DNA of 64,000 nucleotides from Planctomycetota bacterium (GCA_018694835.1 JABHOG010000126.1:1765-65764); one strand, 5' to 3'; counted from the first letter of the stretch, positions 5,126-60,528 are shown. The notes: generated by a model not told the origin, from the letters alone. Program-made: numbers and translations.

Positions 5126-6445
5126 TTGTCACAGTGGGGGAAGCCGATTCCCGGCTCCATCCGAGGTGCGGTGGCGGAATTGGCTCGCCATCCCTGGAGG
5201 ACCGTCCTGATCTGTCAGGGGATTCTCTGGGCGGTTGCGCTGATGGTCGCCCCTGCGTCGATCCTCCAGGGGTCGAGGACCGCAGCGATGGAACGAGCGA
5301 GGGAACTGGGCACAGACCGGATCCAGGTCGAGGTGGAAGCGGGAGCCAGAGCCCTGCTCGAGGTGGAGGATCTGGAGTCGATTCGATCGGTGTTGGCGGA
5401 GAACTATCCGCAGGCGGTGGTCAGTGGCCAATCGGTGTCGGGTAACTCGGCGATTGAAGGGAAGGGGAAGGCCTACCTGGTCGCCTCCGATGAGGGAGAA
5501 ATCGCTGCCCGATCCCTCCTGTTGCTCGAGGGACGCTGGTTCAAAGAGGCCGCTGATCCGCCGGAAGTGGTACTGGAGCAACCCCTGGTGGCGGCACTTC
5601 CCGGGAGTGGAAGCGATTCACCGATCGGTCAGATTCTGTGGGCAGACCCCGCCAGTTCCAGTTACCGCAGGATCGGGCTCGGTGGCGAGATTCCCTCAAC
5701 CGCTCGTAGGTGGCTGGTGGTGGGAGTCATCCGATCGCCCGGAGAATCAAAGGTCAATCCTCTCGGCTTCGGAGAAGACCGTCGATTTTCGGGGATGATT
5801 GAGTCTGCTCTGCAGATGCTGGGGGTGGCCCCGGTGGAGGCGCCGTGGATGACCAGGGGAATGTCACTGCATGTCGATCGTGCAAGCTTGAAGGCGGCAC
5901 CGGTCGATTGGATGGTGGTCTCGGTCGATCCCAGTCGAGTGAACTCTGCCAGAGTGCTCGTCGAGGAGACCCTGATTCGCCGTGGCAAGGCGCCGCTTCT
6001 CTACGCCAATGCGGCCTGGTCAATCCTCGCAAGCCCCGAGCTGGATGGTTATCTGGTCCTGCACGATGTCTTTTTCGGGGTGACCGTGGGGATCGGCCTG
6101 CTGGTACTGATCAATCTGCTACTGCTGACCGGGCGCCGCCGCCGTGGTGAGGTGGGATTGCGTCGTGCCGAGGGGGCGACTCGTGCCGACATTTTCTGGC
6201 AGTTCCTTTGGGAGGGTGTGTTGATCTCGCTGGTCGGTGCCATCCTCGGAGTGGGGGTCGGGGTTCTGGTGGCCCACCTCCGTGCAGGACTGGATCCCTC
6301 GGCAGTGATGACTGCGACATTGCCGTGGAAAACAGCCATCGAAGCGGTCCTCATCGCCACCACTGGTGCAGCGATTGCCTGCGCGGCTCCCGCCTGGGCA
6401 GTGAGTGATGTGGATCCAGCTTTGCTGTTGAGGGAAGGTCGATGA
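5126..6445 (+). CDS. ABC transporter permease, FtsX/MacB-like (DUF214)
   Basis: 439 aa; N-terminal TM, large periplasmic domain, C-terminal 3-TM FtsX module (LLLTGRRRRGEVGLRRAEGATRADIFWQFLWEGVLISLVGA). Confidence 0.8.
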   Translation: MSQWGKPIPGSIRGAVAELARHPWRTVLICQGILWAVALMVAPASILQGSRTAAMERARELGTDRIQVEVEAGARALLEVEDLESIRSVLAENYPQAVVSGQSVSGNSAIEGKGKAYLVASDEGEIAARSLLLLEGRWFKEAADPPEVVLEQPLVAALPGSGSDSPIGQILWADPASSSYRRIGLGGEIPSTARRWLVVGVIRSPGESKVNPLGFGEDRRFSGMIESALQMLGVAPVEAPWMTRGMSLHVDRASLKAAPVDWMVVSVDPSRVNSARVLVEETLIRRGKAPLLYANAAWSILASPELDGYLVLHDVFFGVTVGIGLLVLINLLLLTGRRRRGEVGLRRAEGATRADIFWQFLWEGVLISLVGAILGVGVGVLVAHLRAGLDPSAVMTATLPWKTAIEAVLIATTGAAIACAAPAWAVSDVDPALLLREGR

Positions 6446-50423: not shown

Positions 50424-52526
50424 ATGCATCGATTCCAGAACGTCGGAAACCAGAGCCGAGGAGTATTCTTGAGATCTCAGAATCACAATGATCCGTCCCC
50501 CGAAGACGGGGAAATCGACCCGTCGGAGAAGAGCGCCTGGAGCCAACGACCCTGGGTCTGGTTCCTCATCATGTTGATGATCGTGGTAGTGATGGTCCAG
50601 ATGGCCGGTCCAGGAGCGATCGGAAATTCACGAGAGGTTCCCGCGTCAGAGCTGCTCAAGCAGGCGAGCCGGAGCAACATTCAGAAACTCGAAGAGGTCG
50701 AACTGGATGTATTTGTCGCCACTCTGAAAGCACCCATCGAAGTTGAAGTGATAGAGTTCACGGGGAAAAGTCTGGTCGAGACGAAGAGTTTGCGATCCAA
50801 CATTCCTCCGGCCCTCAAGGAAAATATCTTTCTGGTCATCACCGCCGCTCAGGGAGAGGTGGTCTTCCTGTCCACCTCTGCTCCTGCATGGCAAGTGATC
50901 GTTGGAGGGCTACTCCCCATCATTATCCTGGTCGGATTCTTCTGGTGGATGAGTAACCGCGTTCGCCGTCAGATGGGTGGCCCCGGAATTTTCGGGAAGT
51001 TTGCCAGCAATCAGGCGAAGCGATTCGAGAAGGATGAGCATTCCGTCTCCTTCGAGGACGTCGCTGGCCTGAAGAATGTCAAAAAAGAACTGTCAGAGAT
51101 CGTCGAGTTCCTCCGGGAACCAGAGCGGTTCACCAAACTGGGTGCAAAGATCCCCAAGGGTGTTCTGCTGGTAGGACCTCCGGGCACAGGTAAGACGCTT
51201 CTGGCGCGAGCCGTGGCCGGCGAAGCAGAAGTGCCCTTCTTTTCCATCTCAGGCTCAGAATTCATCGAGTTGTTTGTCGGTGTCGGAGCTTCCAGGGTTC
51301 GAGAACTGTTCGAAGAGGCCAAGCGGAGCGCACCCTGCATCATCTTCATCGATGAGATCGATGCGGTCGGAAGGTCGAGAGGAGCAGGTCTGGGCGGGGG
51401 CCATGACGAGAGAGAGCAAACCCTCAATCAGATCCTGTCGGAGATGGACGGTTTCGAGTCGAATCAGGCCGTAATCGTACTCGCGGCGACCAATCGACCG
51501 GATGTCCTCGATGCTGCTCTGGTCCGACCGGGACGATTCGATCGGCAGGTAGTAGTCGAAAGGCCGCAGAAAGATGGCCGCCGTGCGATCCTCAAGGTGC
51601 ACAGCAAGGATATGCCCCTCGACAAAAACGTCGACATGGAACTGCTGGCACGAGGAACGATTGGATTCTCCGGAGCAGATCTTGAAAATCTCGCCAACGA
51701 AGCGGCATTGATGGCCGCGCGTCGGGGCCACAATACGATCACCCAGGGTGACTTCGATCGGGCCAAGGACAAGATCCAGCTCGGAACCCTACGTGATGAA
51801 GCGATGAGTGATCGTGAGAAGGAACTGACGGCCTATCATGAAGCGGGACATGCTTTGGTGGCACTGTTGCAACCGGAGACCGATCCGGTTCACTCGGTGA
51901 CCATCGTTCCTCGCGGTAGAGCACTCGGGGTCACCCAGCAATTGCCCAGAGAAGAGATTCATAATTACTCTCGCACATATCTGCGCAACAGAATCGCCAT
52001 CTTGCTGGGAGGTCGAGCAGCAGAGGACCTTGTTTTTCAGGAGTTCACCACCGGCGCACAGAATGATCTGGAGCAGGCTACTAACCTGGCAGAACGAATG
52101 ATCTGTCAGTGGGGAATGAGTGAGAAGATGGGTCCAGTTTCCTTCAAGCGGAGCGAGGAGCATGTCTTCCTCGGTCGTGAGTTGGGGGATTCGAGTGGTA
52201 TCAGTGAGCACACTGCGATGCTCATCGACGAAGAGATCCGAGCGATGCTCGACGACGGTTATCAGCGAGCGATGAAGATCCTTGGAGAGTCACGAGAGCA
52301 ACTCGAGTTATTGACGAGAGAATTACTGGAGAAGGAAGTTCTCAATGATCGAGAGATCTACGATCTGATGGGGATCGCGGTCCCACCGGAACTGGCCGAG
52401 ATGATCCAAGATTCGGGAGAGCCTCCAGCCTCGAGAACAGCGCCAGAAAAAAAGGTAGATGCGGCAGAGGATCCAAAATTGCCCAAGGAGATGGATCCTG
52501 GAATGTTGGGCCTGGAGGGCTCCTGA
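50424..52526 (+). CDS. ftsH: ATP-dependent zinc metalloprotease FtsH
   Basis: 700 aa; two TM helices, AAA module ([18 protein letters not shown], second region of homology), HEAGHAL zinc motif. Confidence 0.9.
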
Positions 52527-52618: not shown

Positions 52619-54358
52619 GTGCGGGGGAACGGCCAAATGAGCGAACGGCTCTACCAAAAATTCCATCCACAGGAACAGTACTCGGAACTCCTGGGAGGGG
52701 TCGGCGGCGATGATCGTCTCGACCAGTTGGACCTGCTGGCGCAGCAGGACAGTGGTGATCCACATTATGCCGGTCGATTACTGATTCACTCCGATCAGCA
52801 AGGCAAGGTTTTTGACATCTCGACCACCTCACTCGAGGAACTCATCGATCGAGCACGTGCCCCAGCAGGCGACCAATGGACGACGATTCTCCCGGGAGGA
52901 TTGAGATCTCTGGTGGAGCAGTTTGCCCATCTCGCCCGGTTGCTGGTATTTCTCGCGGAACAGGGTGTGGTGCTATACGTGATTCCACCATCGGCGCTGG
53001 TACTGGGTAGCGATGGAAGACTTCGTGTGAGGAATGATCGAATCGTAGTCGATCTGGATGCCAGCATCGATGAGATGGCCTGTAGGGTTGCCCCTGAGAT
53101 CCTTCTTTCAAGAGATCCCATCCCCTTCGAGGAGAACCAGATCGTCTATGCACTGGCGGTCTTGGTCCACGAGTGTGCCCATGGCTCTCCACCGTGGTCT
53201 GGCAGGACCGCTGCGGAAGTCGCCGATCGACTTCTGTCGAGAGACCCGGGTTATTTCATTTCCGACCGGGTCAGCGATCCTCCGGGTTTGAGTGGGTTAC
53301 TGAGAGACGCACATTCTCCAGATCCACAACTTCGTCCCGCCACCCTTCGAGGTTTTGCCAGCATGCTCGATGCGGTTCGAGATGGAGCGCGACCCCGCTC
53401 ACGCCGCAATAGTTCTGTCGAGGAGGGGCGGCTCAGTAGACGATGGGGCCGATACTTCGGGATGATCGTTCTGTTGATTCTGGCGGTCTGGCTGGGACGG
53501 TCGAGCGTAGAAGGTCCAGCCACCGCGGATCTGATTCGCAGCCTCTCCTCGGCGATGCTGGCACGACCGCTTCCGAGCCATGCGGAGGATGTTCCCGTGC
53601 ATTCGTTAGGGCAAACGCTGCTCGATCTGTACGGAGAAGAGGCATCTTCCTTGCGCAGCGATCCGGCTGTTCAGCGTCAGTTGGCGTGGGTAGCCATCCG
53701 TGCAGGAAAGCCGCGAGCGGCGCGGCTTGCCGCTAGATTTGCCTTTCAGAGCGATCCGTCCCGTCCGGGTCCATGGACAACACTGGGAATCGCCGCCCTC
53801 GAAATGGGGGACCTGGGGGGGCTTGTAGAGCTTCAACGGAGCATCGAATTGGAACCTCTCGATCGATTTGATCGCTGGAGTCGAGGTGCTGCTCAGATGT
53901 ATCTCCTGCGCTATTCATCCGCTGCGAGAACTTTCTCAGAGATCGCTGAGCAGGATCCCGAGGATGCGGATGCCTGGTTTCATCTGGCTCTTGCGCGATT
54001 GCGCAGTGAAGACATCTACGGAGCTGCCGATGCGCTGGCTACGTCACGTCGCATTCGCCCCTTCGATGGTTGGAGCGATTGGCTCGCCGCAGAGATCTAT
54101 CATGCCAGGGGTATGGATGAAGAGGCACTCCAGCTGCTGGAGGAAGCCACTGCCCGCTTTTCGTCATCTGCGGGATTAGCGTTGCGCATCGGGGCCTTGT
54201 GGGGTCGCCTGGGAGATCCGGTGCGAGGTCGGGATTGGATTCGTCGGGCAGATGCTCAGCGAATGACCGCTCCCAGGAGAGAGTGGCGAGCCGGAGGTCG
54301 ATTTGTCGAGCCGGGGCGAGATCACCTGATGCTGGGACCACCTGCGCCTCCTGAATAG
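52619..54358 (+). CDS. membrane-anchored protein-kinase-like (apparently catalytically dead) domain + TPR-repeat protein
   Basis: N-terminal region resembles a kinase C-lobe (RVAPEIL, VYALAVLVHECAHGSPPW) but lacks VAIK Lys, HRD Asp and DFG. Followed by a TM helix (YFGMIVLLILAVWLG) and TPR-like repeats. Confidence 0.55.
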   Translation: MRGNGQMSERLYQKFHPQEQYSELLGGVGGDDRLDQLDLLAQQDSGDPHYAGRLLIHSDQQGKVFDISTTSLEELIDRARAPAGDQWTTILPGGLRSLVEQFAHLARLLVFLAEQGVVLYVIPPSALVLGSDGRLRVRNDRIVVDLDASIDEMACRVAPEILLSRDPIPFEENQIVYALAVLVHECAHGSPPWSGRTAAEVADRLLSRDPGYFISDRVSDPPGLSGLLRDAHSPDPQLRPATLRGFASMLDAVRDGARPRSRRNSSVEEGRLSRRWGRYFGMIVLLILAVWLGRSSVEGPATADLIRSLSSAMLARPLPSHAEDVPVHSLGQTLLDLYGEEASSLRSDPAVQRQLAWVAIRAGKPRAARLAARFAFQSDPSRPGPWTTLGIAALEMGDLGGLVELQRSIELEPLDRFDRWSRGAAQMYLLRYSSAARTFSEIAEQDPEDADAWFHLALARLRSEDIYGAADALATSRRIRPFDGWSDWLAAEIYHARGMDEEALQLLEEATARFSSSAGLALRIGALWGRLGDPVRGRDWIRRADAQRMTAPRREWRAGGRFVEPGRDHLMLGPPAPPE

Positions 54359-55733
54359 AAGATGGGATTGAATAACAGCCCACTCACTCCGTCATCCCTC
54401 TCGAGTGAATGATCGTGGCGATTCAGCTGCGGGAAACACTCGAGAAAGGAGTCGGAAATGTCGAATCGCTCTCTACTGGTGATGGCACTGCTGGTGTCAC
54501 CGATGATCCTGGCAGCTACAAAAGTCGAGGCTGTCTCGCCCCGCAAGTTGCGATGTGTCTCGGCCACCGCGCGTCAATCGGTCAGGGCTTGTTCCCTTCA
54601 TGACCATTCGCACAACATCTTGCCGGGCATCGTTTACTCCAGACGGGGTGGAGGCTGTTTCCGAACCTTATCGAACGGAATGACGCAGGTCTGGAGAGCA
54701 GCGTCCTCGCATATCGAATACCGGAAGGTATGCAGTCCGGATCGATTTCGTACGGTGACCCGCTTTCGCACCGTCTTTCGCTGTGGAGTCCCTTCTCGAA
54801 GGTCATACCAGCAACGGATCCGGATCCCGGGAAGGGCCCGCAGGGTCTCTCACCGGGTCCATGTCCCCGGTGCCTGGGTTTTCCAGAAGCCCGATTGTGG
54901 CCTCTCTGGTGTCGGTCCCTTTCACTAGAGTCCCTCCCTTTGCCCCCGGGGCCGACGGAACCCACCGTCGGCCCCGGATCTTTTCTTTCCACACCTTGAC
55001 CTGTGGCTGACCACCCCCCATATTCCTGCCAGCCCAAGATCTGGACCCATCCCTCTGGCTCTGGCTGATAAAGTTGATTCGAGAATCGTGAGAGTGTGTT
55101 TCTCCACCTGCCATCTCCACCCGCTCTGAGAGTTCCAACACTCCTCTCTGATAAAATTGAGAAGTCTCTATCGGTTCGAGTCCGCAACTGGAGTCCAACA
55201 CTGGAGTCGGCGGCGATCGGTCAGAGGTTTCAGATCAGTGGCTTGAATACGCGGTTTCCCAGGGGGGAAATCGATTCGGGAACTCGGCTCCAGAATCCGC
55301 CTGTGCACTGAAGCAGGGAATGGGGGAATCGGCGGGTGTGGGGCGTGGATCAGGGACCGATCGTGGCGGAGGCGGGACGCGCCTTTTGCCCGAAGATGGA
55401 TGACCAGGCTGGGGAGCCTGGACGGGGACGCCCCTCTGTGGGGCGAGGGGATCCGATCGAGGAGCCGTGCCAGGTACGGCGACTTGAAGACGGGAGCGTG
55501 GGGGGAAGAGAGAGAGCGGTCTTGCACCGCTGATCGCAGGATCCGTTCCTGCTGGATCCATCTCCAACTACCACCGCCTGCTGGATCGAAGAAAGCCCTG
55601 TCCACTCCCGGTATGTCTCCGCCTGTTTTCCTGATCGCTCCCACCTCTCAACATCACGCACATCGGCCTGCTCGTCCCTACGCACTTCCTGGGCAGGTTT
55701 CCCAACGTCCTAGCGACATTCATACCCAAGCTT

Positions 55734-55770
55734 CTCCTCGCCGAGTAGGGACGGCGAGGAGCTTTTCTCC
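55734..55770 (+). terminator. strong hairpin (10-bp perfect GC stem, 8-nt loop) followed by CTTTTCT; terminator/attenuator-like element in the leader of the giant regulator gene
   Basis: ctcctcgccg-agtaggga-cggcgaggag-cttttctccc, read directly. Confidence 0.4.
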
Positions 55771-55897
55771 CAGCCGGGGGCGATTTTCACCGTTACTTTT
55801 CTTTACGGGAGAGGCCCCGCCCGATACCCTATCCGTCAGGATTTGTTACGGTCGTATGGGGGTGCTGAGAAGGCGCCGATTCGAGGAGGTGGGTTCG

Positions 55898-58800
55898 ATG
55901 GACGGAGAGAGCCAAGTGGTCGAATCGAGCGGAGAAGCGCTGGAAGAGACCCCTCGCCAGCAAGCGTTGACTCGGCTTCGTGAGTGGATCCAGATCGGAC
56001 TCGATCCCGACCCCGAAACTCCTCGCAAGGGCGCCACCAACTGTTCTTTGTCGCTGATCGGTGGTGCCAGCGGGATCGGCAAGACTCACCTGATCGCTCA
56101 GGCGCTCTCGGAGTCCTCCGCAGCAACAGGACCGATACTCAGTTGTCGGGTTCATTGCCACGAGCGTCAGGGGATCCCATTTCTTCCGGTGCTTCGTCTG
56201 GTCAAGGATCTCATCATCGAACATGGCGAGACGAGAGGGCTGTGGCGGCGCTACGCCCATGTCCTGGTGCGGGTCTTTCCCGAGCTGCAACAGGAGGTCA
56301 AAGGTGTCGTCGACCAGGAGCCTCTGGCGGGAACTCGCGGCCGGATCCAGTTCCACCAGGCTTTGACGGGGATTCTCTGGGAACTGGCGAAGGATCGGAC
56401 TCTTGTCCTGGTCCTCCATGACCTGCACCGGAGTGACCCAGGGACCATCGAGTTTGTCGAATACCTGGCCAGAAATTCGGCTCTCTCCAGGGAGCCTGCC
56501 CAGGGGGCAGGAAACCCGGCTGGAGGCGAGGGTGACCGGGACTGGAAGCAGATCCGTGCGAGGGAGGGGCGCGCCGGGGAGTTCGCCAGTTCCATCGTCG
56601 AGCCGGATCAGGACACCACCTTCCCAGCGGAACAGGTTCAGGGACGTCTTCTCATCGTAGGAGATCATTGTTCCGATAGTTTCGCCGCTAGCGCTCCAGA
56701 ACTGCAGCGGTTGGCGAGTCAGCCCTTCTGTCGAACCATCGATCTCCCCTCCTGGACCGGGTCAGAAGTCTCGGATCTGGTGAATCAACAACTCGGGAGC
56801 GAACCCCCTGAGGAACTGGCCAAGACCATCGCCGAAGGTTGCGATGGCAATCCAATGCTGGTGCTGGAGATGTGCCGGTTGCTTGAGGAAGGTGGCGTGG
56901 CTTCGCCGCTCGAGGCGGAGAGTGTAGAAGCCCTACTCGAGAGTGCTCGAGGGGGTGATCTGACACAACTAGTGGTCGAGCGCAGAGTGGCAGCTCTCCC
57001 GCCATTGGAGCGACGAGTGCTGGAGCAATTGGCCATGTTACGAAGACCGGTTCAATCTTCATTTTTGGTTCGGTGTTGCGGAGTCTCTCAGGAGCGCCTC
57101 GAAGGAGCGTTGGAGCCACTGATCCAGCGAGGATTCGTCGATCGTCATGAATCGAGAGGCAAGGTTCGGTTCCACATCAGCCATGAGATTCACATGCGAG
57201 GAATCCGTTCAGCGATTCGACCCGAAGCGGCAAGGAATCTGCAAAAAGAACTGGGGATGACTCTCAGCGAGGATGTACGAAGCCGGGATCCGGTTCGAGC
57301 CTACGAAGTGCACGAGTTACTGGCCGCTGGAAATGAACCGAAACTGGCCATCCCGTACGGGATCATCGCCATGAGTTACTTTGCCGATGCCTACGCCGAG
57401 CCTCTGGCGATTCGCATCGGAAAAAAGATGCTCGAACTGCTCGAGGGCGATGCCGATCCCAAGTTACGCGTTGAGATTCTCGGTCGACTGGCTCGTCTTG
57501 AGGTCGAGGTCGGTCAACTGGAGTCGGGTAAGTTGCATCTCAAATTGCTACTGGAAGATCCCGACCTGACTCCAGAGGAACGAGTGGAGTCACGATTCTA
57601 CCTTGCCGAGATCTACCACCAACTGGGAGAGCCGTTGAAGGGGATCCGAGGCCTCAACCGGATCAGTTCCTCCGATCTGGACACTGCAGGAGCAATTGCG
57701 CTGCCGAAACTGACGATCTTGCGAGCTCGTCTACGACTGCAACGACGAGATATCAAGAGGGCGATGAGCCATTGCTTGCAGGCACAAAAGCAGATCTCGG
57801 GGATCGATCAGCATGAGGGAGTGGAGAAGCTGCAATGTCAGGTGCTGGAAGTCCTGGCGGAAACCCATCTCGCCAGAGGCGACTCTGCTGCCGCACTCAA
57901 CACTTATCAGCGGCTACTCGATCAGGTGGAAAGAGACGAGGATCCGGTGGCACTCGGATCGGTCCTTCGAATCATCGGGAGAGTCTATTACGAGCGAGGG
58001 AAACACTTCCGCGCCGCCAGGTACCTGTTCCGAGCGCTGGAAGTGGTCGACCGATCTCAGGATGTCAGGGCTCTCGCTGCGACCTTCGAATTACTGGGTA
58101 AGGTCTACAGGAACAGCGGCGATTTCTCACGAAGCCTCGAGCATTTCCGTCGCTCTCTGACCTTGCGGGAGCGGATCGGTGACAGCCATCAGATTTCTCC
58201 GACTCTCAACTCCATCGGAAGCCTCCACGCTCATTCGGGCGATTACGATCGGGCGATTCGTTTCTTCAAGCGTAGTATCTCCAATAGCGAGAAGTTTGGC
58301 AGTACCGAGGGAATCGTTCGTTCCTTCCTGCACCTGGGCTGGGCATGGTTTGCGCTGGGAGAACGAAAGCAGGTCGAGAATCTGGCTCGTCAGATCCTCA
58401 TTCTCACCCAGGAGTTTGAACTGCCGAAGCACCAGCCGGAAGGCCATCGCTTGCTGGGGAACCTGGCACTTCTGCGCAGGGACTGGAAACTCGCCGATCG
58501 CGAACTGAAGAAGGCGCTCGACCTGAGCCAGAAGCAAGGACTCGATCGAGTGGTGGCAGCCAGCCTCTTTGATCGCGCTCAGTTGGGGATCGAGAGAGAA
58601 GAGTACGAGGAGTCTCTCAAGCTTGTCAGCCGAGGGTTGCTCACCGCCGAATCGCTTCAATCGGTACCACTGATTGTCCGTGGACTGCTACTCAAGGGGT
58701 CGATCAGTTTGCAGCGAAATGAGGAGGGGCAAGAGAAGGCACTCGAGAATTACGAGAAAGCACTTCAAATGATCAGCGGAGATTCGCTGTTGCCTCTTCA

Positions 58801-60253
58801 GTGGCAGATCCACTACGCCCTCGCCAGGGTTCAGCAGAGTTCCCATGACTTCGAAGGCGCATGCGTTTTCTACGACCGAGCAGCCGCCATCATCGAACGG
58901 ATCTCACAGAGGCTGCCCGAGGATATGAGGGTCGTCTATCTCAATGATCGCAGACGCAAGAACTTCTTCGCCGACCTCCAACGCTTCAGGAGGGAATCCG
59001 ATTCTCTCCCTCCAGCGATCGGTCCGGGACCGGTGGTTTTCTCCGACCTCGATCAGGGCGGGGGCGGCGGTCACGGAGCAAATAACGGCTCCGACCTGCT
59101 AGTGGCCGCGGTGAATGCGGCGACCAGACTGGGGAAGAGAATCGAACTCCGCACCTTCCTCGAAGGGGTACTCGATGAATCGAGGAAGATTGCACCGAGT
59201 CCTCGAGGCTTCATCGCAGCGCTCAGGAAACGCCGTTGGCAGAGCCTGGCAGATATCGACATGGGACCGACAGAGGATTGGCTTCCACAGCAACAAGTTC
59301 TTGGCGCCCTTGCGCAAGAGTGTCTCGATCGAGGCGTGGCGATTCGCAGTGGAACCGCAGCCTGGGAGTCGTGGATACACAACCACCCACAGGAGTCCTC
59401 GGTGAGAGGCCGAAGCCTGCTGGCGATCCCCTTCTGTGCAGAAGGGGTCCTTTCTATTGCTCTGGTTCTGGAGCGCCCGACCGCTGGGAATCCGTTCCAG
59501 GAACAGGATGTCGCCGAGGTGATTCGATTGCTCTCGATGGTCAAGGGCCAGATGAGGGCGCTGGCCGAGAATGCTCAGTTACTCGAGTACCAGGAGAGTG
59601 AGATCGGATCGTTGGCCGCACTGGATGTGGACCTCGAGCAGTTCCTCGATCGCCATCATCGTGACAAGCAGCCGCTGGGATTTCTCGAGATGAGTTTTCC
59701 TGGTCTCGACATCCTCTTGAAAGAGCGTCAGGACGAGACCTTTGTCGAACGGCTACTTCAGATGCTGGAACCAAACTCCGGGGTCTACCACACCGGTGGA
59801 GATCATCTGGTCTGTGCACTGATCGGGCCGGGAGAAGATGACCTGCGCCAGCGCAGTCGTGACCTTCAGCACGTATTCCATGATCTTCGTCAGGAGTTTG
59901 GATTACCGATGGAAGTCGCCATCCACATCTTGCCGAGATGGTATCCAGTTGGATCGAAAGAGGTGGCTGAACTCAGCAGTGGTAGAGCGGACCTGTTTCG
60001 ATCCGCGCAAAAACCAGATCTCGATCAGGAGGTTGCCAGGCTGACTTCAGGAGAGTTGACCCTGCGAGAGGCCAAGGCCGCCCTCGAGCGTCGATATATC
60101 ATCGCAGAGTTATTTCGCTCCGGAGGGAATATCACCCGGGCTGCTGAGGCACTGGGGATTCATCGTCCTCAACTATCGAACCTGCTCAAGCGCCATGAAA
60201 TCCGCAAGGAAGATTTTGAAGGGGACTCTGGAAAGAAAACCAGTTCCTCCTGA
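55898..60253 (+). CDS. giant multidomain regulator: STAND/AAA_16-type P-loop ATPase + extended TPR arrays + GAF domain + GGDEF-like segment + C-terminal Fis-type (HTH_8) DNA-binding domain
   Basis: Start set at Met 55898 with GAGGAGGTG RBS 6 nt upstream; the first 166 codons of the 1617-aa track ORF are low-complexity and look non-coding. Walker A LIGGASGIGKTHL with STAND-like continuation, many TPR-like repeats, GAF-like block (SLLAIPFCAEGVLSIALVLERP), GGDEF-like VYHTGGDHLVCALIG. C-terminal HTH REAKAALERRYIIAELFRSGGNITRAAEALGIHRPQLSNLLKRH. Confidence 0.75.
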   Translation: MDGESQVVESSGEALEETPRQQALTRLREWIQIGLDPDPETPRKGATNCSLSLIGGASGIGKTHLIAQALSESSAATGPILSCRVHCHERQGIPFLPVLRLVKDLIIEHGETRGLWRRYAHVLVRVFPELQQEVKGVVDQEPLAGTRGRIQFHQALTGILWELAKDRTLVLVLHDLHRSDPGTIEFVEYLARNSALSREPAQGAGNPAGGEGDRDWKQIRAREGRAGEFASSIVEPDQDTTFPAEQVQGRLLIVGDHCSDSFAASAPELQRLASQPFCRTIDLPSWTGSEVSDLVNQQLGSEPPEELAKTIAEGCDGNPMLVLEMCRLLEEGGVASPLEAESVEALLESARGGDLTQLVVERRVAALPPLERRVLEQLAMLRRPVQSSFLVRCCGVSQERLEGALEPLIQRGFVDRHESRGKVRFHISHEIHMRGIRSAIRPEAARNLQKELGMTLSEDVRSRDPVRAYEVHELLAAGNEPKLAIPYGIIAMSYFADAYAEPLAIRIGKKMLELLEGDADPKLRVEILGRLARLEVEVGQLESGKLHLKLLLEDPDLTPEERVESRFYLAEIYHQLGEPLKGIRGLNRISSSDLDTAGAIALPKLTILRARLRLQRRDIKRAMSHCLQAQKQISGIDQHEGVEKLQCQVLEVLAETHLARGDSAAALNTYQRLLDQVERDEDPVALGSVLRIIGRVYYERGKHFRAARYLFRALEVVDRSQDVRALAATFELLGKVYRNSGDFSRSLEHFRRSLTLRERIGDSHQISPTLNSIGSLHAHSGDYDRAIRFFKRSISNSEKFGSTEGIVRSFLHLGWAWFALGERKQVENLARQILILTQEFELPKHQPEGHRLLGNLALLRRDWKLADRELKKALDLSQKQGLDRVVAASLFDRAQLGIEREEYEESLKLVSRGLLTAESLQSVPLIVRGLLLKGSISLQRNEEGQEKALENYEKALQMISGDSLLPLQWQIHYALARVQQSSHDFEGACVFYDRAAAIIERISQRLPEDMRVVYLNDRRRKNFFADLQRFRRESDSLPPAIGPGPVVFSDLDQGGGGGHGANNGSDLLVAAVNAATRLGKRIELRTFLEGVLDESRKIAPSPRGFIAALRKRRWQSLADIDMGPTEDWLPQQQVLGALAQECLDRGVAIRSGTAAWESWIHNHPQESSVRGRSLLAIPFCAEGVLSIALVLERPTAGNPFQEQDVAEVIRLLSMVKGQMRALAENAQLLEYQESEIGSLAALDVDLEQFLDRHHRDKQPLGFLEMSFPGLDILLKERQDETFVERLLQMLEPNSGVYHTGGDHLVCALIGPGEDDLRQRSRDLQHVFHDLRQEFGLPMEVAIHILPRWYPVGSKEVAELSSGRADLFRSAQKPDLDQEVARLTSGELTLREAKAALERRYIIAELFRSGGNITRAAEALGIHRPQLSNLLKRHEIRKEDFEGDSGKKTSSS

Positions 60254-60342: not shown

Positions 60343-60528
60343 TTAGCAGATGAAGTCGTGGGAGCGAACGGTCTTGCGCCCGTTTTGGCTGGCACGTTTC
60401 GCCGCCTGTTCGATGGCCTGGTGCAGAATCTCGTTGAGTCCGTCGAGGGCATCGCCACCGACATTGACATCGTGCTCCTTGAGTGCAGCCTTCGCTTTAC
60501 TTCCGACGAGCAGCATTTCCTTGGACAT
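60343..60528 (-). CDS. bacterial histone-fold protein (DUF1931 / Bd0055 HBb-like singlet histone)
   Basis: 61 aa: MSKEMLLVGSKAKAALKEHDVNVGGDALDGLNEILHQAIEQAAKRASQNGRKTVRSHDFIC. It follows the LVV(T/G)SK.K..LKE...N.....D.L...I.Q....A......GRKTV...D pattern of Bdellovibrio Bd0055-type histones. AAAGGGGA RBS 5 nt upstream of the ATG. Confidence 0.75.
   Translation of the reverse strand: MSKEMLLVGSKAKAALKEHDVNVGGDALDGLNEILHQAIEQAAKRASQNGRKTVRSHDFIC

Follow-up and report, generated by a model that had tools for sequence, protein, structure and literature searches.

A probable STAND-class transcription regulator of Planctomycetota with a MalT-like sensor, a degenerate GGDEF domain and a Fis-type helix-turn-helix

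A 64,000-nucleotide stretch of DNA from a Planctomycetota bacterium (GCA_018694835.1, JABHOG010000126.1:1765-65764; the whole stretch is called the window here) contains, at 55898-60253 on the plus strand, a gene for a protein of 1451 amino acids, which we refer to as the regulator. This protein is probably a transcription regulator that works in the cytoplasm, integrates signals and belongs to the STAND class (signal-transduction ATPases with numerous domains); a Fis-type helix-turn-helix (HTH) would serve as its output and would be reached through a relay made of a GAF domain and an inactive GGDEF domain. A preliminary description of this DNA, made from the sequence alone, had proposed one long open reading frame (ORF) at this position and the order STAND NTPase, tetratricopeptide repeats (TPR), GAF, GGDEF-like segment and Fis-type HTH. 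This order was found to be correct by Pfam searches, by comparison with homologues and by a structural model of the C-terminal part. Two motifs that had been quoted were located at residues 55-64 (GGASGIGKTH) and 1297-1305 (YHTGGDHLV). No transmembrane segment was found in the protein.

The gene was uninterrupted over its 1451 codons and stop codon, with neither a frameshift nor an internal stop between 55898 and 60253, and a split gene was thereby ruled out. In this frame, the longest ORF extends over 55400-60253 (+). ATG 55898 is nevertheless the likely start, because a GAGGAGG Shine-Dalgarno sequence lies 8 nt 5' of it, the alignment with each of 27 full-length homologues (1436-1564 aa; 36-95% identity) begins at its methionine, and a structured RNA gene and a promoter block, both conserved at the nucleotide level, fall into the in-frame sequence 55400-55897. 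An N-terminal extension to ATG 55400 was rejected on these grounds.

The N-terminal part carries the core of an AAA_16 (STAND-type) P-loop NTPase at 56042-56482 (+; residues 49-195; Pfam PF13191, E 3.3e-12). The Walker A motif, GASGIGKT, occupies residues 56-63, and G61 and K62 are invariant in the family. Judged from these residues, nucleotide binding by the regulator is likely. The Walker B motif is a variant, LVLVLHDLHRSD (residues 169-180), which reads hhhhHD in place of hhhhDD. D175 is invariant, while H174 is at least 90% conserved in the family and is replaced once by Asn. In the alignment with P0036, a larger protein from another lineage that is discussed below, H174 is aligned with the first Asp of the DD pair (LILVIDD there). 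The change from Asp to His suggests that hydrolysis may be weak. Behind Walker B there is an otherwise variable, low-complexity insertion, and a conserved motif, RDWKxIRxREGRxGEFAS, was observed within it at 56534-56587 (residues 213-230). W216, I219 and R222 of this motif are invariant, and the motif is absent from the P0036 alignment.

Two further segments of the NOD module were tentatively assigned at 56648-57187 (+) from weak matches, conservation and collinearity with P0036: residues 317-320 (GNPM/L) would belong to a helical GxP segment, and residues 361-430 to a winged-helix-like one. In the family, G317 is invariant and N318, P319 and L320 are nearly invariant. The Pfam matches were weak both for NB-ARC (residues 302-329) and for MarR_2 (367-421). 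The GNP[LM] motif and the MarR-like match are compatible with the helical and winged-helix part of a STAND module. A long MalT-like TPR sensor array follows at 57305-58987 (+; about residues 470-1030). It was recognized by TPR_12 (E 4.7e-24) and by TPR_MalT (PF17874; 49.7 bits against a Pfam cutoff of 45 bits), and it also matched TPR structures in the PDB.

MalT is the best-known switch among the STAND proteins, and regulators of the MalT/LAL design combine a STAND NTPase with a TPR-like sensor and a C-terminal HTH output. The N-terminal AAA_16 P-loop NTPase, the putative GxP helical segment, the MalT-like TPR sensor and a C-terminal DNA-binding domain are all common to MalT/LAL proteins and the regulator. 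In contrast to the LuxR-type HTH of the MalT/LAL proteins, the regulator has an HTH_8 domain, and no match to GerE (PF00196) was found in it. Furthermore, a GAF domain and a dead GGDEF domain are inserted between sensor and HTH. Compared with MalT itself, the regulator is about 550 residues longer and has the hhhhHD form of Walker B described above. By analogy, the ligand- and ATP-driven oligomerisation switch of the MalT type would be the natural mechanistic model for the regulator.

The HTH_8 (Fis-type) DNA-binding domain lies at 60083-60193 (+; residues 1396-1432; Pfam PF02954, E 2.3e-8), and its PDB matches were the DNA-binding domains of NtrX, FleQ and ZraR as well as Fis. It is the most conserved part of the regulator, with an identity of 0.93 in close and 0.69 in distant homologues, and 20 residues across the recognition region are invariant in the family. 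This constraint bears on the idea that the protein is a non-transcriptional scaffold, whose TPR array and STAND NTPase would assemble a protein complex while the HTH is vestigial. The TPR array makes up most of the protein and the sources annotate it as a TPR protein only, which would suit a scaffold. However, a vestigial HTH would hardly be the most conserved part, with its invariant recognition region, and conserved dyad sites are present on the regulator's own promoter. We therefore regard the scaffold as quite unlikely.

An HTH_8 domain without a sigma-54 module has a precedent in Fis itself, which was among the PDB matches of this domain. It also occurs in REC-HTH_8 regulators such as RegA/PrrA. 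The claim that the regulator lacks a sigma-54 AAA+ module held: neither a match to PF00158 (Sigma54_activat) nor a GAF[ST]GA (GAFTGA) or ESELFG motif was found in the protein, and the N-terminal ATPase is of the AAA_16 type.

The GAF domain was placed at 59123-59581 (+; about residues 1076-1228) on the basis of Pfam matches in homologues, an AlphaFold model and Foldseek. Pfam GAF gave no match for the window regulator, neither with the whole protein nor with the isolated segment; of the 23 family members, however, 17 did match it (best E 2.7e-9), and precomputed annotations of PF01590 or PF13185 exist for several distant homologues. The AlphaFold model of residues 1062-1451, for which 23 family sequences were used, reached a pLDDT of 84.6 and a pTM of 0.69. 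In Foldseek searches, this model matched the solved GAF domains 3ci6, 3p01 and 3eea together with multi-domain GAF proteins. Moreover, its best PDB matches were GAF-GGDEF proteins, namely Dcsbis (4zmu, E 2.4e-8), PelD (4etx, 4euv, 4dn0) and a phytochrome-linked cyclase (6et7, 5llw). The homologues and the confident model thus bear out a GAF domain at this place.

The next domain, at 59603-59992 (+; about residues 1236-1365; motif GGDHL), was identified as a degenerate GGDEF fold by AlphaFold, Foldseek and a profile search. Pfam GGDEF gave no direct match in the window regulator, in its isolated segment or in the 23 family members. The model of residues 1226-1386 had a pLDDT of 84.3, and its secondary-structure elements follow one another as in a GGDEF domain (alpha-beta-alpha-alpha-beta-beta-alpha-beta-alpha). 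In Foldseek, the 50 best PDB matches of this model were without exception GGDEF domains (best E 4.1e-5, TM up to 0.66). When a profile of the segment was run against 1.84 billion representative proteins, it recovered first its own family and then proteins of 200-750 aa with E values from 4.5e-9 to 1e-3; all seven of those that were scanned proved to be bona fide PF00990 proteins (E 1e-33 to 1e-74). The same profile gave in-register, sub-threshold matches to the solved GGDEF domains DosC, 3ezu, 3icl and DgcB. By fold and by profile, the segment is a genuine but degenerate GGDEF homologue. A class III adenylate cyclase domain, which the sequence pattern had suggested, was rejected, as all top fold and profile matches were GGDEF domains.

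The signature residues of the GGDEF family are largely lost. In the alignment with true GGDEF domains, the metal-binding Asp of the DxD element (beta-1) is Ser in the regulator, the guanine-contact Asn and Asp align with Leu and Lys, respectively, and the GH..GD segment is absent. The GGDEF motif reads GGDHL in the window regulator, so that its glutamate is gone, and it drifts across the family to GGDRY, AADHL, GNDTL and DADRF. In the family alignment, a gap takes the place of the loop with the RxxD I-site, which canonically lies five residues upstream of the motif. In the most distant clade the motif has become WG[SN]P[VL], yet the EPxTGxY start, which resembles the canonical DxLTGL, is kept. 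The domain is also the least conserved of the structured domains, with an identity to the window protein of 0.24 in distant homologues compared to 0.69 for the HTH. Because both the A-site and the I-site are lost and the domain is so weakly conserved, neither cyclase activity nor canonical or PelD-style binding of cyclic di-GMP (c-di-GMP) is expected. The suggestion of a possible c-di-GMP-related module is therefore not upheld.

PelD of Pseudomonas aeruginosa and Dcsbis (PA2771) are GAF-GGDEF tandems and the best structural matches to the C-terminal model; for PelD, the matches 4etx, 4euv, 4eu0 and 4dn0 span 315-333 alignment columns. PelD resembles the regulator in having a GAF domain followed by a catalytically dead GGDEF domain. 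Unlike the regulator, it is membrane-anchored, keeps the RxxD I-site for c-di-GMP binding and has no HTH. Dcsbis is an active cyclase, whereas the regulator has neither A-site nor I-site and continues into an HTH. The likeness to PelD, a c-di-GMP receptor, raises the alternative that the PelD-like unit of the regulator is a nucleotide-second-messenger receptor, in which binding of c-di-GMP, GTP or another nucleotide would gate DNA binding. In favor of it, P1268, G1269 and D1302 are invariant or nearly so in the closer clade, and acidic residues recur at 1263 and 1271, which may form a metal or nucleotide pocket. But the I-site that PelD uses is deleted, the guanine-contact Asn and Asp and the metal-binding Asp are absent, the GGD motif is lost in the most distant clade and no structured domain is less conserved. 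On balance, a receptor of this kind appears unlikely.

The GGDEF fold in this position also bears on another question. Two proteins from other lineages, P0036 and P0044 (about 1770 aa; one is named 'Nif-specific regulatory protein' by JGI), have the order Ser/Thr kinase, AAA_16, TPR, GAF, Sigma54_activat and HTH_8. The AAA_16-TPR-GAF...HTH_8 backbone is common to these proteins and the regulator, and P0036 is collinear with the regulator over the NTPase, the TPR array and the GAF domain and once more over the HTH_8, with 22% identity over about 1050 columns. The regulator differs from both in lacking the N-terminal kinase and in having the degenerate GGDEF domain where they carry a sigma-54 AAA+ module. 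Collinearity with P0036 thus means that the same backbone exists with a sigma-54 module at the position of the dead GGDEF. The regulator might accordingly be a decayed enhancer-binding protein, derived from such a kinase-bearing activator and still acting at sigma-54 promoters, for example via a partner AAA+ protein. The place of PF00158 between GAF and HTH_8 in the two relatives, and the fact that HTH_8 is typical of NtrC-family proteins, would agree with this origin. However, the interval between GAF and HTH in the regulator has a GGDEF fold, which ruled out an AAA+ remnant; PF00158 and both sigma-54 motifs are missing as described above; and the conserved promoter block of the gene looks sigma-70-like and does not resemble a GG-N10-GC sigma-54 promoter. 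A decayed activator is thus very unlikely.

A GGDEF fold before an HTH has a parallel in the PucR-type regulators. In these proteins, of which MabR of Mycobacterium tuberculosis is an example, a GGDEF-like domain without A-site or I-site directly precedes the HTH, as was shown structurally for MabR, and they form dimers and tetramers (PMC11617747). PucR-type regulators (MabR; BAD_0249 of B. adolescentis) share with the regulator a sensor, a GGDEF fold without these sites and a C-terminal HTH. They are only about 400-550 aa long and have no NTPase, TPR or GAF. Moreover, no match to GGDEF_2 (PF17853) was found in the regulator family, and HTH_30 (PF13556) gave only sub-threshold matches in 18 of 23 members (E 0.0014-0.009; 16-18 bits against a cutoff of 27 bits), so that HTH_8 stands as the significant match. 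The top 50 folds were likewise canonical GGDEF domains and not structures of the PucR family.

The DNA upstream of the regulator was compared among loci, and BLAST against the fetched loci revealed two non-coding conserved blocks between an upstream terminator and the gene. Conservation of the block nearer to the gene, at 55790-55851 (+), extends over 23 loci (47-95% protein identity). Its pattern in these loci consists of an invariant TTTACG, a variable spacer of 17 nt and TA[CGT]CCT (TAGTAT in L026). From this conservation pattern, TTTACG at 55802-55807 (+) would be the -35 element and TACCCT at 55825-55830 (+) the -10 element. We infer that the block is a sigma-70-type promoter with a start site near 55837.

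Two 19-bp dyads, CCGT-N11-ACGG, lie 43 bp apart in the same block, at 55790-55808 and 55833-55851, where they overlap the putative -35 element and start site. This pattern occurs three times in the 64-kb window, against an expectation of about one, and two of the three matches are at the block. Over 36 loci, 50 of the 197 matches to CGT-N11-ACG fell within the 450 nt upstream of the regulator, which make up 3% of the sequence (binomial p about 3e-31, in a statistic that treats related loci as independent). In loci at middle distance, whose intergenic DNA can no longer be aligned, dyads of the CGTA-N9-TACG type were still present, with 7 of 10 matches located upstream of the regulator and some paired 91-100 bp apart. 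Since the conservation and enrichment of the dyads coincide with very high conservation of the HTH, they are reasonable candidate operators for autoregulation.

The second conserved block is a structured small RNA (sRNA) gene of about 109 nt at 55663-55771 (+), which consists of two hairpins with complementary loops and scored 108 bits in the window with a covariance model. In an alignment of 22 sequences, the hairpins showed 97.1% standard pairing, compared to 41-54% when the partners were slid. Double (compensatory) changes were found in 13 of 25 pairs, and the observed scores were reached by none of 500 shuffles. RNAalifold recovered the same two helices independently. The support for the structure comes from this covariation and not from folding energy, which was not unusual for the single sequence (z -0.92). 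In each of the 22 sequences the two loops (UCCCUAC and GUAGGGA) match as complements, and the complementarity is kept by two independent compensatory changes (CCCUGC/GCAGGG in L035 and CCCUAU/AUAGGG in L009). The hairpins are separated by a conserved single strand, ...UCC...UUCAGACCCAA..., and hairpin 2 is followed by a T-run and was called as an intrinsic terminator. Rfam 15 gave no match for this RNA, and nothing specific on planctomycete sRNAs was found in the literature.

The sRNA gene and the regulator occur together. The covariance model found exactly one copy per locus, always on the regulator strand, in 33 of 34 regulator-selected loci with enough upstream sequence; the 64-kb window likewise has a single copy. 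The loci with one copy each are L004-L027, L029, L030, L033-L037, L039, L041 and L043-L060. In the opposite direction, metagenome contigs were scanned with a pattern of the RNA only, which yielded 18 true instances. In 10 of the 12 RNA-selected contigs with enough sequence, the regulator followed on the same strand within 1.6-2.3 kb downstream; the two exceptions are identical-type contigs from one lineage. The link is kept even in the most distant clade (27-32% protein identity), where the FtsH, FadB-like and histone-like genes are no longer nearby. There, the sRNA precedes the regulator match by 1.9-2.9 kb, and in L004 the two are separated by a gene on the opposite strand. This distance and the intervening gene indicate that the sRNA is an independent gene, and a cis-acting leader or riboswitch of the regulator was ruled out.

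As a hypothesis only, the adjacent sRNA might be a regulon partner of the regulator. Upstream of the sRNA, neither a sigma-54 promoter nor a shared operator was found, and no motif was common to all clades. In one clade, a TTGCCAC element precedes the sRNA, with a GG-to-GC spacing that is one base off the sigma-54 consensus. This element is present three times in L020 and L023 at about 5700-5757 (TTTTGCCACAG x3), with the copies spaced by about 11 nt in L023 and by slightly more in L020; it may be a promoter or operator particular to this clade. When targets complementary to the conserved single strand of the sRNA were sought, one match was obtained in the window, no more than expected by chance.

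The region before the regulator had been described as a 1.5-kb leader. This stretch instead holds a 156-aa ORF, a terminator, the sRNA gene and the putative promoter. The ORF at 54458-54928 (+) has a signal-peptide-like N-terminus, belongs to no Pfam family and shows 31-94% identity in related loci. The hairpin at 54946-54977 (+) resembles an intrinsic terminator, with a 13-pair stem, 12 GC pairs and a T-rich tail, and it ends the unit of FtsH, TPR protein and 156-aa ORF, whose order is kept in homologous loci. A sigma-70-like promoter match was observed at 54996-55024, and about 640 nt of poorly conserved DNA lie between it and the sRNA.

Further upstream are the FtsH gene (50424-52526) and a gene for a 579-aa protein with C-terminal TPRs (52619-54358, +), which adjoins FtsH in most loci. 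The latter had been taken for a kinase-like neighbour; only TPR matches were obtained in Pfam, with no kinase match even at E 10. By eye, its N-terminal part, for which Pfam gave no match at all up to E 10, resembles a kinase C-lobe without HRD or DFG motifs, and the product is possibly a pseudokinase-TPR membrane protein. Downstream, a 61-aa ORF at 60343-60528 (-) encodes a bacterial histone-fold protein of the DUF1931 type, which in a phmmer search of the PDB matched 9qt0 (E 2.2e-10) and a Bdellovibrio histone-like protein (8fvx/8cmp, E 2e-4). It is convergent with the regulator and lies about 90 nt past its stop codon. In a genome scan, it was found downstream of the regulator in 29 of 38 loci (70-98% identity), directly after it in most.

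The regulator family comprises about 28 clusters in a collection of 5.8 billion proteins, all from metagenome-assembled genomes (MAGs) of Planctomycetota, and its members are named only 'tetratricopeptide repeat protein' or 'hypothetical' by the sources. About ten 50%-identity clusters with this specific GGDEF-fold domain, including three truncated products, were found in the 1.84-billion-protein library. A further homologue search with the C-terminal alignment returned only one fragment. The scan of one genome per GTDB species yielded 38 loci, all in MAGs and nearly all labelled Planctomycetota, with two under other phylum labels; the samples were of marine, groundwater and other origin. Two of the Planctomycetota MAGs with the regulator were assembled to 7.9-9.2 Mb. 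The closest relatives of the window regulator (94-96% protein identity) are in the isolates UWMA-0276 and bin110s and in MAGs of the UBA1146 type.

In these 38 species-level genomes the regulator is single-copy and its synteny is conserved. This pattern speaks against an anti-phage STAND (Avs-like) defence protein. Although a STAND NTPase with a TPR sensor is the layout of Avs proteins too, vertical conservation beside stable housekeeping neighbours (FtsH, FadB-like) is at odds with this role, PADLOC yielded generic TPR and HTH matches only, and neither a nuclease nor another killing effector was found. A defence function is thus extremely unlikely.

For the signal-integrating regulator that we favor, the following mechanism can be proposed. 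The AAA_16 NTPase, whose Walker A motif is intact, would bind ATP or ADP together with the helical and winged-helix segments and act as a slow on/off switch. By analogy to MalT, the TPR array of about 560 residues would keep the NTPase off until a ligand or partner protein binds, upon which nucleotide exchange and self-association would follow. The GAF domain, assigned by its modelled fold, may provide a second small-molecule input or a dimer interface. The degenerate GGDEF domain could be a structural dimerisation or lever module that sets the geometry of two HTH_8 domains, as in PucR-type proteins such as MabR, and the two domains together would form a dimeric relay comparable to the GAF-GGDEF units of Dcsbis-type cyclases. 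Finally, the HTH_8 dimer would bind dyads including those at its own promoter, where the sites are conserved and enriched, so that the gene would probably be autoregulated.

Several points weigh against this interpretation. The His-for-Asp change in Walker B could mean that the switch no longer cycles, and the winged-helix call is based on weak matches (E 4e-4 to 6e-3). Because P1268, G1269 and D1302 are invariant or nearly so within the clade of 36-95% identity, a non-canonical ligand pocket in the degenerate GGDEF domain is possible. The promoter was called from conservation alone, and the thresholds of a consensus scan were not reached at the block. The relatedness of the loci tempers the enrichment of the dyads, and the six most distant loci yielded no such dyads in front of the regulator. 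In addition, every relative comes from an uncultured MAG.

A bolder reading, which we consider possible but doubtful, is that the regulator and the kissing-loop sRNA form a conserved two-gene unit across much of Planctomycetota, comparable to LuxO-Qrr or GcvA-GcvB. The regulator would then found a new class of STAND transcription factors; its repurposed GGDEF domain would sense a non-canonical ligand or pass the switch to the Fis-type HTH, and the sRNA would be both the regulator's main target and its post-transcriptional output.

The preliminary description had also held that this is not a described regulator class. No description of the full architecture was found in full-text searches of the literature, and the full domain combination appears to be undescribed. 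The parts are not without precedent, since PelD, PucR, Fis and MalT/LAL provide an analogue for each junction.

Characterised transcription regulators are almost lacking in Planctomycetota. As a single-copy gene in at least 38 species-level genomes with a strongly constrained DNA-binding helix, the regulator is probably important in marine and groundwater members of this phylum. It would extend the MalT-type STAND regulators to a Fis-type output, and, following the PucR family, would be the second and an independent example of how a GGDEF fold is put to non-catalytic use before an HTH. The comparison with P0036 and P0044 points to an exchange between a sigma-54 AAA+ module and a dead GGDEF domain on one AAA_16-TPR-GAF-HTH_8 backbone. 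In annotation, proteins of this family should not be counted as c-di-GMP enzymes or receptors. The linked sRNA, which belongs to no Rfam family, and the candidate operator offer concrete experimental handles on the regulator.

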